From Bdellovibrionota bacterium (GTDB taxonomy: Bacteria > Bdellovibrionota > UBA1018 > CAIPTA01 > JAALKR01), in NCBI GenBank assembly GCA_965207455.1, contig CBDBMJ010000001.1, positions 992,001-1,056,000 of the forward strand: a DNA stretch of 64,000 nt, given 5' to 3'. Position numbers: made by a program. Shown here one piece after another: positions 15,001 through 18,000 of the stretch. Positions within the stretch are counted from its first letter, which is position 1. Each line of letters opens with the position of its first letter.

Positions 15001-18000
15001 ATGGGTAACTGCCGTCAATGATATCTCTTTTTCTGTGCCTAAAGGAAAAACAATTGGCATAGTGGGAGAAAGTGGCTGTGGTAAATCCGTTACTGCCCTT
15101 TCTATTATGCGCTTAATTGCAGATCCACCCGGGAAAATCACCGGAGGAGAGATATTTTTTCAAGGAACAAACCTCCTAAACCTTTCCAACCAAGAAATGC
15201 GCAAAATTCGAGGAAATAAAATTTCCATGATATTCCAAGAACCCATGACATCCCTCAATCCCGTCTTCACCATTGGCAACCAAATTATGGAAAGTATTAT
15301 CCTTCACCAAAAGGTTTCTCGAAGTGAAGCCAAGAAAAAAGCCATTGATATGCTACATCTTGTGGGCATTTCTTCTGCCGATACGCGTGTGGAAGAATAC
15401 CCCCACCAACTCTCAGGAGGAATGCGCCAGCGGGTGATGATTGCAATGGCACTGTCGTGTAACCCCACCCTATTAATCGCCGATGAACCCACCACCGCTC
15501 TGGATGTTACTATCCAAGCCCAAATTTTAGATCTTATTGCTGGTTTACAAAAAAAATTAGGCATGGCTGTTTTACTTATCACCCATGACTTGGGGGTTGT
15601 GGCCGAGGTATGTGATTATGTGGTAGTAATGTACGCAGGAAAAGTTGTGGAGCATGGAAATGTGGACGACATTTTTCTCAACACCGCTCACCCGTACACA
15701 AAGGGTTTGTTAAATTCCCTGCCATCCATTACTGGAATAAAACAAAAAAAACGATTACAAACAATCCCTGGGATTGTGCCAGACCTATTGTCTCTGCCCC
15801 CTGGCTGCTCTTTTAACGACCGCTGCACTCGTCGAAAAGAACATTGTTCTAAGGATACTCCTAGTTTACGTCCCATACTCTCCTCTACCCATCAAGCCTC
15901 CTGCTTTAATCCTTACAAAAAAAATGAGGCAATAGATCCATGACACCAGCAAATCCCAACGAAAATTTACTGGTAGTAAGAAATTTATCAAAATTTTTTC
16001 CCATTCATGCTGGCATTCTCCGTCGAGAGGTAGCGTCCGTAACTGCTGTTTCAGACGTGAGCTTTTCCATCAAACGAGGAGAAACATTGGGGCTGGTGGG
16101 AGAAAGTGGTTGTGGAAAGTCCACACTGGGTCGCTGTATTTTACGCCTCCTAGACCCCTCTGCTGGAGAAGTCTGGTTCAATGGACAGAATATTTTAAAC
16201 TATAACGCTAAAGAAATGCGACGAATCCGTCAAAAGATGCAAATTATTTTTCAAGACCCGTTTGCCTCCCTAAACCCTAGAATGATGGTGAGCTCAGTCC
16301 TAGAAGAACCCATTCGTATTCATAAGCTTATGAAACACTCGGCTGATGTGAATAAACGCTCCTTAAAACTATTGGACCTTTGTGGCCTACATTCCAGCGC
16401 CATGAACCGCTATCCCCATGAGTTCAGCGGCGGTCAACGCCAGCGAATTTGCATCGCCCGTTCCTTAGCTGTGGAACCAGAATTTATTATTTGCGACGAA
16501 CCCGTATCTGCCCTAGACGTTTCCATCCAAGCCCAAATTGTAAACCTATTGCAGGATTTACAGGAAGAATTGAACTTAACCTATCTATTTATTGCCCACG
16601 ATCTACAAGTAATAGAACATATCTCTAACCGCGTTGCCGTAATGTATTTAGGAAAAATAGTGGAAATTGCCGAAGCAGATACACTCTATGCACAACCCAA
16701 ACACCCCTATACGGAAGCATTATTTTCAGCTATTCCCGTTCCCGATCCTCATTATAAAAAGAAACGAATTATTTTAGAGGGCGATGTGCCCAGCCCCATC
16801 TCTCTTCCCAGTGGCTGCTCCTTTCATCCACGCTGCCATCATGTAATGAGCAATTGCTCTAAAGATCGACCATTACTAAAGGAAGTGGCAAAAGATCACC
16901 ACACAGCTTGCTGGCTACACCCCGGCAGTTAGAGAAACAAATTTTGTACATTAGAATAAAAATTTATGGATACAATAGAAAGGAATCAGAAAGAAAAAGA
17001 ATAAAATCATAAAAAATAATAAAATGCGATCGTGGTGGAATTGGTAGACACGCCAGATTTAGAATACAACCTGGACCTTTATGGAGAAACCCATAAAGTG
17101 GACACTCCTAATTCGGGGAAACCTTACTGGACCTTTTTTTATGGCCCACTGGCAATCCCGAGCTAGCAAAGAGCAAAAAATGTATGGCTTCTCAAAGCCT
17201 CCATTATAACTCTTGGGCAAGTGTAGAGACTGTACAGAGTGCACCTAAAACTTTTCTTTTTTTTTATTCCATAAAAGAAAAGAAACGGTGAAGAGACAGT
17301 CCAGACTACAAACACATTTCTCTTCTCCCTCCTATTTTCATAAATAGCGAAAGATCAGAAACGTGGCAGTGAAAACTGTAGTTAGAGAGAGGATCTGGTG
17401 CCGCAAGGTGTGAGAGTTCGAGTCTCTCCGATCGCACCAACTCGCAATGCATTATCTTTCCCAAAAAAACGGACACTTTTACACAAAAATAAATGAAGAA
17501 AACAGTTTTTTCTAATTCACAGGCTTTTGCAAAAAATTAGACATGAAAGCAAGTTAATAGATACACGACTTCTTATATTCTAAATAAGAAGTTTAACCCA
17601 TCAGAGCAATTTTTTATGGAGTTTCTACTGGAAAAGCTGGAATTGAAATAGCTATGGTGCTGCAAAAAACGCTACCACATTTGCTAAGTGTAGAAAAGCC
17701 TAGCTGGTTATAAGTGTTACTTCCCCAGCATTTTATATTTCCACTATTTAAAAGTACGCAGGAGTGAGCAATTCCAAAAGCAATTTGACTTACATCATTT
17801 AAATCAAAAACATCAACTGGTATTAAACTATCTGTGGTGCTATTATTACCCAATTCTCCATAATTATTATTTCCCCAGCACTTCACAGTACCTGCTTCAT
17901 TGATACCAGTGGTGTTGGTATCATCAACTAGAGCTGCGCAGGTGTAACTTCCTCCCAAAGCAATTTGACTTACACCACTTAAACCCGAAACATCCACTGA

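Follow-up and report, generated by a model that had tools for sequence, protein, structure and literature searches.

A classical bacterial tRNA-Leu group I intron in the tRNA-Leu(UAG) gene of a Bdellovibrionota bacterium

The known classes of intron-split bacterial tRNA were recently raised from 4 to 21 (Williams 2020, preprint, bioRxiv 10.1101/2020.01.27.920355). One of them, the classical tRNA-Leu(UAA) intron of bacteria and plastids (class 'Leu.3Ug' in that work), is the closest described system to the element reported here: it interrupts its host at the same site, between U34 and A35, in the same GAYUU| exon context, and shares both the core and the P1/P10 logic. The differences are these. 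The host in the present case has the anticodon UAG; opposite position 36 the guide has C, whereas in tRNA-Leu(UAA) introns this base is mostly U; the exon carries U32, compensated by A50 in the intron; and some 110 nt of additional peripheral sequence are present. A more distant relative is the Azoarcus-type tRNA-Ile2(CAU) intron (class 'Ile2.5Ug'), which has another insertion point, after U36, and is the type found in the second split gene of this genome (50 bits with the family model R1 described below).

Our search of the open full-text literature returned no paper that connects group I introns with bacterial tRNA-Leu(UAG) or with the Bdellovibrionota. By comparison with the running text of Williams 2020, tRNA-Leu(UAG) appears to be a new host for a long-known bacterial intron kind. 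The element itself is not a new kind: the classical tRNA-Leu intron gains tRNA-Leu(UAG) as a further host, and nothing changes in the general understanding of group I introns and their mechanism.

Layout and identity of the split gene

Run with its default settings, ARAGORN reports zero tRNA genes across the window (the whole 64-kb stretch of DNA analysed), in keeping with the initial annotation, which had described the gene as missed by the standard tRNA scan. Once introns are permitted, the program reports tRNA-Leu(tag) i(39,329) at 17026-17439 of the + strand (contig 1009026-1009439), the same gene, 329-nt intron and U34|A35 junction that had been proposed. The 414 nt are divided into a 35-nt 5' exon (17026-17060), the 329-nt insert (17061-17389) and a 50-nt 3' exon (17390-17439). 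The 5' exon contributes the 5' strand of the acceptor, the D arm, the 5' strand of the anticodon stem and U32, U33 and U34. The 3' exon begins AGGA (A35, G36, G37, A38), so the anticodon is UAG and the host is not tRNA-Leu(UAA), and continues through the 3' strand of the anticodon stem, a long variable arm, the T arm, the acceptor 3' strand, A73 and CCA; it shares 82-93% identity with tRNA-Leu genes of the order that lack an intron. When the exons are joined in silico at U34|A35, ARAGORN recognises tRNA-Leu(tag) in the 85-nt product, which folds as a cloverleaf, has a long variable arm and carries A73, an encoded CCA and the anticodon UAG. The last base of the 5' exon is U and that of the intron is G; these terminal bases and the 85-nt product both agree with the earlier account. 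We are confident that 17026-17439 is the single tRNA-Leu(UAG) gene of the genome, split between U34 and A35 by a group I intron that is presumably spliced out.

The general Rfam model serves this intron poorly. RF00028 matches 17050-17323 with 42.1 bits (E 1.8e-9, model positions 1-253) when a 501-nt stretch is scanned, below its gathering score of 50 bits, and in a 4.5-kb scan at E<=1 the intron is not detected; none of the 12 RF00028 seeds is bacterial (Williams 2020). A family-specific covariance model, R1, was built from 19 bacterial tRNA-Leu introns of other genomes (16 hosted by UAA and three by UAG genes), the 329-nt intron itself being left out of the training set. R1 matches that intron with 151.5 bits (E 4.8e-46) over the full model, positions 1-236 of 236, as its sole match in the 64 kb, and the closest single relative is a Leu(UAA) intron with 81% identity over 170 core columns. 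The initial annotation had held that the Leu(UAG) intron shares only stretches of ~30 nt with Leu(UAA) introns, a view that these full-length matches overturn. To judge from its sequence, the insert belongs to the small group I introns of bacterial tRNAs (IC3-like), is endonuclease-less, and aligns as a full-length member of the classical tRNA-Leu(UAA) intron family at an identical insertion site. No gene for an intron endonuclease was recognised among five small ORFs in or over the intron, which match 0 Pfam families. Upstream, no convincing promoter was found, the one weak promoter-like site (16930-16957) comparing with 1.7 expected by chance; the promoter/terminator scan returned no + strand terminator.

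Core helices, splice-site pairings and predicted splicing

The helices of the intron, all on the + strand, were assessed by projecting P1-P9 of this sequence onto 95 distinct homologues, in which 84.9% of cells pair as against 61.7% in shuffles. For covariation the helices score 0.473, a value that none of 500 shuffles reaches (0.132 in shuffles), and sliding the partner strand by 1-3 columns lowers pairing to 32-44%. P2 is an 8-bp hairpin at 17077-17098 with the loop AGAAAC (87.7% paired, double changes at 8/8 pairs), present also in the minimum-energy fold. P3 joins 17103-17107 to 17237-17241 (78.9% paired, double changes at 5/5 pairs) and lies outside the structure of R1, so its covariation count was not fitted. 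Within the element 17112-17162, P4 pairs 17112-17117 with 17157-17162 (87% paired in homologues) and P5 pairs 17122-17123 with 17151-17152 (92%), with an inserted hairpin at 17128-17148; J4/5 (GAAA) and J5/4 (CAAU) are mapped to the same element. P6 (17169-17173 with 17210-17214, element 17169-17214; 94.7%) has a lineage-specific inner extension that includes a hairpin at 17186-17199. The 5' strand of P7 (17226-17231), G-(bulged A)-GACU, pairs with 17298-17302 (AGUCC), is invariant in 8/8 rows of the alignment and is paired in 100% of the 95 rows. By analogy with the Tetrahymena and Azoarcus introns, we take the G203-C276 pair that follows the bulged A to be the guanosine-binding site (gene numbering; window position = gene + 17025). 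P8 (17242-17245 with 17287-17290, element 17242-17290; 98.1%) is extended by 10 A/U-rich bp (17251-17260 with 17273-17282), and P9 (17313-17321 with 17357-17365, element 17313-17365; 8/9 pairs) encloses an inner hairpin at 17332-17347, its segment being mostly insertion relative to homologues. A terminal hairpin, G-CAGU-GAAA-ACUG-U with a GAAA tetraloop (17366-17379; 93.7% paired, double changes 5/5), precedes the terminal (omega) G at 17389, an invariant column (G364) of alignment A2 that is G in all Leu-type rows. The predicted group I core is complete, comprising P3-P8, the P3/P7 pseudoknot and the bulged-A/G-C site in P7.

At the splice sites, P1 (17058-17075) pairs U33, U34 and U35(-1) of the exon and A36 and G37 of the intron with the guide C46 U47 G48 G49 A50, all in gene numbering, around a loop at 17063-17070 and with a U(-1).G48 wobble at the 5' splice site. 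It is paired in 89.9% of cells in the 95 homologues, with compensatory changes, and exon position -3 forms a U-A pair here but C-G in homologues. The guide part of P10 (17070-17072) sets C45, C46 and U47 against G37, G36 and A35 (tRNA numbering) of the 3' exon (17390-17392), as the pairs A35-U47, G36-C46 and G37-C45, which covary with the anticodon. Guide position 46 is C in 5/5 UAG-type rows and in 0/24 UAA-type rows, where the base opposite position 36 is U in 18, G in 4, A in 2 and C in 0. Guide sequence and anticodon thus covary in nature, A36-U against G36-C, in a manner that can be tested at the bench.

We infer from these elements that splicing takes place and is autocatalytic. In the precursor, U33-U35 of the exon and the first two intron bases would pair with the guide CUGGA as P1, placing a U.G at the splice site, and free guanosine, held at the G-C pair of P7, would attack after U34. 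The guide CCU would next pair with A35-G36-G37 of the 3' exon to form P10, the terminal G (17389) would move into the G site, and ligation of the exons would yield an 85-nt tRNA reading CUA and CUG. The extra sequence in P5, P6, P8 and P9 (~110 nt over the 216-223 nt of the nearest relatives) is A/U-rich, and P1 has just five pairs, two of them consecutive U.G, with a conserved A.C mismatch adjoining. Such insertions and so short a P1 could weaken the fold to the point where splicing in the cell needs a protein chaperone or cofactor, a reading that the low Rfam score would also fit. We consider this requirement unlikely, though it deserves the most attention of the alternatives, since the core helices and the two GAAA-type loops are all preserved and covary, and the intron folds far more stably than shuffles (z-score -4.8). 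Furthermore, small tRNA introns of this family reportedly self-splice in vitro, as work on Anabaena and Azoarcus, including that of Reinhold-Hurek and Shub in 1992, is said to have found.

Decoding need and other readings of the locus

The genome has 33 ordinary tRNA genes; those for Leu are confined to the anticodons GAG, CAA and UAA, and two others have the anticodon CAU. Neither Leu(UAG) nor Leu(CAG) is among these 33, and the genome's own tRNA-Leu(UAA) is uninterrupted. The cell needs this tRNA: the split gene is the only CUA/CUG decoder found in the assembly, and these two codons account for 24% of the Leu codons across 742 long ORFs. A second split tRNA lies outside the window at C1:1515437-1515761, where RF00028 scores 106.8 bits and splicing after U36 gives a 77-nt CAU tRNA; its group I core is complete, the evidence supports it as the genome's only candidate for AUA decoding, and an ORF with PF01171 (TilS-type) is present. 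Most of what the initial annotation said on these points is borne out: both RF00028 scores, the 77-nt product, the lack of another tRNA-Leu(UAG), the two other CAU tRNAs and TilS. The Ile intron is identical to that of genome G072 at 195 of 248 positions, where the initial annotation had given 76%. The claimed dependence of CUN Leu and AUA Ile decoding on introns holds for CUA, CUG and AUA but not for CUU and CUC, which are read by tRNA-Leu(GAG). The split tRNA-Leu(UAG) gene escapes both the standard finders of tRNA genes and routine scanning with Rfam, and on that basis the genome would be annotated as lacking readers of CUA, CUG and AUA; split genes of this kind are readily detected with a covariance model of the family.

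With 94.7% completeness in 3 contigs, another tRNA-Leu gene could be unassembled, and the intron might then be a dead relic that no longer splices, with CUA and CUG read by the missing tRNA. A relic of this general kind, a truncated intron with a 3' exon, is known in genome G425 of the same phylum. At the present locus it is very improbable: the gene occupies the conserved OppF-linked position of tRNA-Leu(UAG), its exons give a perfect cloverleaf, its core, splice-site U.G, terminal G and P10 are all preserved, including compensatory pairs specific to the lineage, and CUA and CUG are heavily used.

A working intron could still be cut elsewhere. Because P1 contains two U.G pairs in a row, this sequence alone does not single out the junction, and the Rfam alignment sets the splice-site U.G one pair earlier; joining after U33, a single base upstream, likewise produces a cloverleaf, called Leu(gag) by ARAGORN, so that the product would be a second tRNA-Leu(GAG). 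We give this reading scarcely any credence. The junction after U34 is fixed by homology and by the terminal-G rule: homologues have a U.G solely at the U34 pair, and with the upstream join the intron would end in A rather than G. In addition, A35 and G36 have their pairing partners in the guide, at U47 and C46, orthologues at the locus are UAG, and a tRNA-Leu(GAG) already exists in the genome, so that a CUA/CUG reader would remain absent. A contig of a different organism from sequencing run X2 joins 17060 straight to 17390, so an intron-less tRNA with exactly the predicted junction exists.

That the insert is a chimeric join absent from the organism's DNA is next to impossible, for although short-read contigs do break at tRNA exon edges, no support for such a join was found, homologous split genes occur in independent genomes, and a 411-nt contig of run X1 covers 17033-17443, spanning the intron and both exons, with zero differences and at a depth of 38 (32-40 in the flanks), X1 being possibly the source sample and so not independent. 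The assembly across the split tRNA-Leu(UAG) gene is sound.

Probable intron gain and other intron hosts

Upstream of the split gene, at 15940-16932 of the + strand, lies a gene for an OppF-like, oligopeptide-type ABC transporter ATPase (Pfam PF00005 and PF08352), which serves as a synteny anchor. Its orthologues, with 70-72% identity, stand directly upstream of an intron-less tRNA-Leu(UAG) in six genomes of the order, that is, in 6/6 of those having a tRNA-Leu(UAG) call. The spliced tRNA is 79-86% identical to these six orthologues and 73% to other intron-bearing Leu(UAG) tRNAs. Given this positional orthology, the intron was probably gained at the conserved OppF-linked locus, which would be a clean case of intron gain. 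The only other genome of the family, G010, is uninformative here: it has no matching tRNA exon, and its OppF match (46% identity) is not at a syntenic locus and is followed by no tRNA.

The resident gene appears to have acquired a Leu(UAA)-type intron, in which the guide base opposite position 36 would have changed from U to C. Tentatively, and as a possibility somewhat short of probable, we suggest that an endonuclease-less tRNA-Leu(UAA) intron was naturally retargeted to the resident OppF-linked tRNA-Leu(UAG) by reverse splicing or recombination, and was fixed there through the guide change and A50 opposite U32. The anticodon loops of tRNA-Leu(UAA) and tRNA-Leu(UAG) differ only at positions 36-37. 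If true, the proposed retargeting would parallel in nature what has been achieved by engineering guide sequences, and tRNA introns without a homing endonuclease gene would still be mobile between isoacceptors and lineages, each move leaving an essential decoder reliant on ribozyme activity.

RF00028 matches occur in 9 of 127 genomes of the class and in 0 of 10 other genomes of the order, with Leu(UAA) as host in three genomes and CAU in two, all as first counted. Two claims of novelty have to be narrowed. Other genomes of the class and phylum carry intron-split tRNAs, some two per genome, which bears on the claim to a first intron-dependent tRNA set in the Bdellovibrionota; and the isoacceptor, put forward as one not known to carry an intron, has intron-bearing copies in three other genomes of the phylum and on at least two metagenome contigs. 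Public data hold at least five further Leu(UAG)-hosted introns. Complete genes are found in G195, G168 and metagenome locus L211; of the two incomplete ones, L163 is a probable Leu(UAG) host cut at a contig end and G425 is missing the 5' exon. All five share isoacceptor, junction and guide logic with the present gene, but they belong to different families of the phylum or to unplaced metagenome contigs, their introns measure 187-223 nt against 329 nt, their host tRNAs are 73% identical to this one, and in L211 and L163 the guide is shifted by one base. In a tree of 99 introns (173 columns) the present intron is grouped with those of G168, G195 and G425 at a weak support of 73; a topology uniting all six UAG-type rows is not rejected (p-AU 0.8), which falls short of showing a clade, and the tree is too weakly resolved for host switches to be counted.

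Scans with core motifs, which are samples rather than a census and use motifs not specific to Leu(UAG), returned at least 119 genome loci and at least 120 metagenome loci. Among the matches listed, ARAGORN assigns the genome loci to Arg(tct) (30), none (24), Arg(cct) and Leu(taa) (12 each), Leu(caa) (9), Tyr and Thr(tgt) (7 each), CAU (6), Ser(gct) (5), Ser(tga) (3), SeC(tca) (2), and Ser(cga) and Leu(cag) (1 each), and the metagenome loci to none (69), Leu(taa) (17), Asn (7) and others. Its anticodons on split genes are sometimes wrong: 'Leu(cag)' at L141 is an initiator tRNA, and 'SeC' at L211 is Leu(UAG).

For G425, with its intron and 3' exon, trans-splicing was considered and found unnecessary, an intact intron-less tRNA-Leu(UAG) being present on another contig. 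Co-conversion of exon sequence was also considered: A31-U39 occurs in all intron-bearing Leu genes and is absent from the intron-less genes of the order, a pattern that is suggestive only, as the intron-less tRNA of G425 has A31-U39 too.

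The split tRNA-Leu(UAG) gene and its probable decoding role

Default ARAGORN returned no tRNA gene across the whole 64-kb window; with introns allowed it called tRNA-Leu(tag) i(39,329) at window positions 17026-17439 (+), within the intergenic stretch (16933-17613) that separates an OppF-like ABC ATPase gene (15940-16932, +) from a gene for an RCC1-repeat protein (17614-18948, -; 444 aa, six RCC1 repeats, PF00415, PF13540 and PF25390). On our reading of the junctions, the 5' exon (17026-17060, +) ends in CCAGAUUU, the 329-nt intron (17061-17389, +) opens with AGAAUAC and closes with UUAGAGAG, and the 3' exon (17390-17439, +) begins with AGGAUCUGG. 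Cutting after 17060 and before 17390 is the sole solution that combines a 7-nt anticodon loop, U33, a U at the end of the 5' exon and a G at the end of the intron. Joined in silico, the exons form an 85-nt cloverleaf, again called tRNA-Leu(tag) by ARAGORN; its variable arm is long, position 73 is A and the CCA is encoded. The initial annotation had placed a 329-nt insert between U34 and A35, and the intron-tolerant search and the joined-exon cloverleaf agree on it.

The 33 ordinary tRNA genes of the source genome, G000 (2.38 Mb, 3 contigs, 94.7% complete), serve all 20 amino acids; for leucine the anticodons are GAG, CAA and UAA only and, as had been stated, no other tRNA-Leu(UAG) is found. 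Across 742 ORFs with 350 codons or more, CUA and CUG make up 24% of leucine codons (23.6 per 1000 codons) and AUA 30% of isoleucine codons, all beyond reach of the ordinary tRNAs by standard wobble rules. The proposed dependence of CUN and AUA decoding on split genes would therefore stand for CUA, CUG and AUA, but not for CUN as a whole, since tRNA-Leu(GAG) is among the ordinary tRNAs. Outside the window, the earlier report of a CAU tRNA with an intron after U36 at C1:1515437-1515761 (C1 being the same contig) was likewise reproduced: the locus scores 106.8 bits with RF00028, the Rfam group I intron family, and splicing after U36 (5' exon ending CAU, intron ending G, 3' exon starting AA) would give a 77-nt tRNA with a GGGCCC acceptor stem that differs from the initiator and elongator Met tRNAs. 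This is the classical Ile2 setting, and for the TilS previously noted in G000 there is a 429-aa PF01171 ORF, consistent with that enzyme.

Group I architecture of the intron

RF00028 aligned over its whole length to window 17050-17323 at 42.1 bits (E 1.8e-9), the same value as first recorded and under the gathering score of 50 bits. The match is reported in a 501-nt scan (16980-17480) and absent from a 4.5-kb scan (15000-19500) at E<=1; Infernal filters hide this intron in routine annotation. The tRNAscan-SE 2.0 paper speaks of tRNA genes missed owing to group I introns. Our own covariance model R1, trained on 19 tRNA-Leu introns of genomic or metagenomic origin (3 UAG-hosted, 16 UAA-hosted), the G000 intron not among them, gave a single match in the window, at 17049-17401 (151.5 bits, E 4.8e-46), spanning model positions 1-236 of 236, which contradicts the claim that likeness to Leu(UAA) introns is confined to core stretches of ~30 nt. 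Elsewhere in G000, a weak third RF00028 match lies at C1:1770152-1770524 (17.8 bits, E 0.04), and an ARAGORN call 'tRNA-Asn(att) i(41,184)' at C1:131709-131989, with no RF00028 or R1 match, is probably spurious.

Helices were drawn by hand on the G000 intron in gene numbering (window position minus 17025): P1 (33-37/46-50), P2 (52-59/66-73), P3 (78-82/212-216), P4 (87-92/132-137), P5 (97-98/126-127), P6 (144-148/185-189), P7 (201, 203-206/273-277, A202 bulged) and P8 (217-220/262-265), followed by a terminal GAAA hairpin (341-354) and omega G (364). Projected onto A4, the alignment of 105 R1 matches (95 distinct), these helices show standard pairs in 84.9% of cells against 61.7% in shuffles and a covariation score of 0.473 against 0.132, figures biased towards P1, P2 and P4-P8 by the fitting of A4 to the R1 structure; P3 lies outside that structure, though double changes occur in all five of its pairs. 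None of 500 shuffles reached the observed value on any of five measures, and sliding the partner by 1-3 columns lowered pairing to 32-44%. The exon-exon anticodon stem pairs at only 33% in A4, owing to the variety of hosts and to poor alignment of the flanks. For window 17050-17400 the minimum-energy fold (-101.5 kcal/mol, z -4.8 versus shuffles) recovers P2, P6, an extension of P8, P9 and the GAAA hairpin, and ORFs in the intron matched no Pfam family. Judged from sequence, a functional-looking group I intron in what would be an indispensable tRNA is real and well supported.

Splice site and guide

Two U.G pairs adjoin in P1 (U34.G49 and U35.G48, gene numbering), so the G000 sequence alone allows two 5' junctions. 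The Rfam alignment chooses the earlier pair; in homologues from genomes G195 and G168 and from the metagenomic locus L211, the only wobble is that of the final exon U, and these settle the junction. The same guide would explain exon ligation via P10, pairing U47, C46 and C45 with A35, G36 and G37. The guide base opposite position 36 tracks the host anticodon across A4: it is C in all five rows with a 3' exon starting AGGA (UAG hosts) and in 0 of 24 rows with the GACUU context and a 3' exon starting AAAA (UAA hosts; U 18, G 4, A 2), a count that leaves aside the identical rows L179 and L193, with C at the guide and AAAA but no recognisable 5' exon. This guide/anticodon compensation is a neat one. 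Exon position 32 forms a U-A50 pair in G000 and a C-G pair in the homologues. Finally, a contig of a different, unrelated organism in X2, a sequencing run of another study, joins 17060 straight to 17390; from D arm to T arm its tRNA has one difference from the joined exons (17033-17060 plus 17390-17430), while the acceptor stem diverges. An uninterrupted tRNA with exactly that junction therefore exists.

Probable gain, relatives and other hosts

An uninterrupted tRNA-Leu(UAG) occurs in six of the order's ten further genomes (G001, G002, G005, G006, G008 and G009), in each case directly downstream of the orthologue (70-72% identity) of the G000 OppF-like gene. Identity of the spliced G000 tRNA is 79-86% with these six, as against 73% with the tRNAs of other intron-bearing Leu(UAG) genes. 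Because of this shared synteny and higher identity, the G000 gene is the resident one and its intron, most simply, a gain; that gain looks clear at the conserved locus. RF00028 is absent from the ten, as initially reported, and so are R1 matches (0/10). Among the 127 members of the class, R1 matches show Leu(UAA) as host in 6 genomes and CAU in 3, G000 included, plus one intron with its host context unrecognised; G000 alone has a Leu(UAG) host.

BLAST found core matches in only three of 401 phylum genomes, G195, G168 and G425; 31 further genomes (E<=0.01) gave short matches of ~20-40 nt, mostly to the A/U-rich stretch. G195 and G168 hold complete tRNA-Leu(UAG) genes with introns of 216 and 223 nt at the identical site. 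Each also has a second R1-type intron (L293 on contig C171 of G195, 101.7 bits; L294 on C3 of G168, 84.2 bits), with ARAGORN hosts CAU and Asn(GUU) and doubtful intron lengths. Contig C68 of G425 (L015/L291, ~1500-1790) bears a complete Leu(UAG)-type intron and 3' exon, with a short UUCG hairpin in place of the expected 5' exon, and an intact intron-less tRNA-Leu(UAG) lies on a separate contig, C99 (L299 1484-1568); the split copy looks like a relic, possibly left by a mobile element. Of the metagenomic loci, L211 carries a Leu(UAG) gene in full, its intron 187 nt long, and L163, cut short where its contig ends, is a probable further case. On metagenome contig L157 (380-627), an intron and a tRNA-Leu(UAA) 3' exon stand without a recognisable upstream 5' exon; along with G425 and L179/L193, this suggests that 5'-truncated intron-bearing tRNA fragments recur. 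A 173-column tree places the G000 intron, with weak support, among Leu(UAA) introns and adjoining the G168/G195/G425 trio; a single origin of all UAG-hosted introns is neither shown nor rejected, and by identity its closest relative is L267 (81%). On metagenome contigs L151, L159, L162, L166, L181, L189, L199 and L226, two to three R1-type introns lie within ~1 kb; these would be several split genes side by side, mostly with no host tRNA by ARAGORN.

The classical bacterial tRNA hosts of group I introns are Leu(UAA), fMet, Ile2(CAU) and Arg(CCU). A survey of 5292 split tRNA genes recognised 21 host/site classes, of which the name 'Leu.3Ug' draws no line between UAA and UAG (Williams 2020, bioRxiv 10.1101/2020.01.27.920355). 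Full-text searches of the open literature yielded no paper naming a bacterial Leu(UAG) host, or a host from this phylum, and to that extent the novelty claimed for the isoacceptor holds; copies in G195, G168, G425, L211 and probably L163 count against it. The G000 intron belongs to the tRNA-Leu intron family, and its host isoacceptor is new or at least unpublicised; the intron is no new kind of element, nor is it unique to G000 or to the data of this phylum. Core-motif scans gave, among the matches listed, hosts including Arg(UCU), Arg(CCU), Leu(UAA), Leu(CAA), Tyr, Thr, Ser, Asn and Lys. Among the listed matches L032-L150, ARAGORN calls place the motif in named genomes beyond the four classical hosts: Arg(UCU) in Bacillus, Neobacillus and many Gammaproteobacteria MAGs, Tyr(GUA) in Clostridia MAGs, and also Thr(UGU) and Leu(CAA).
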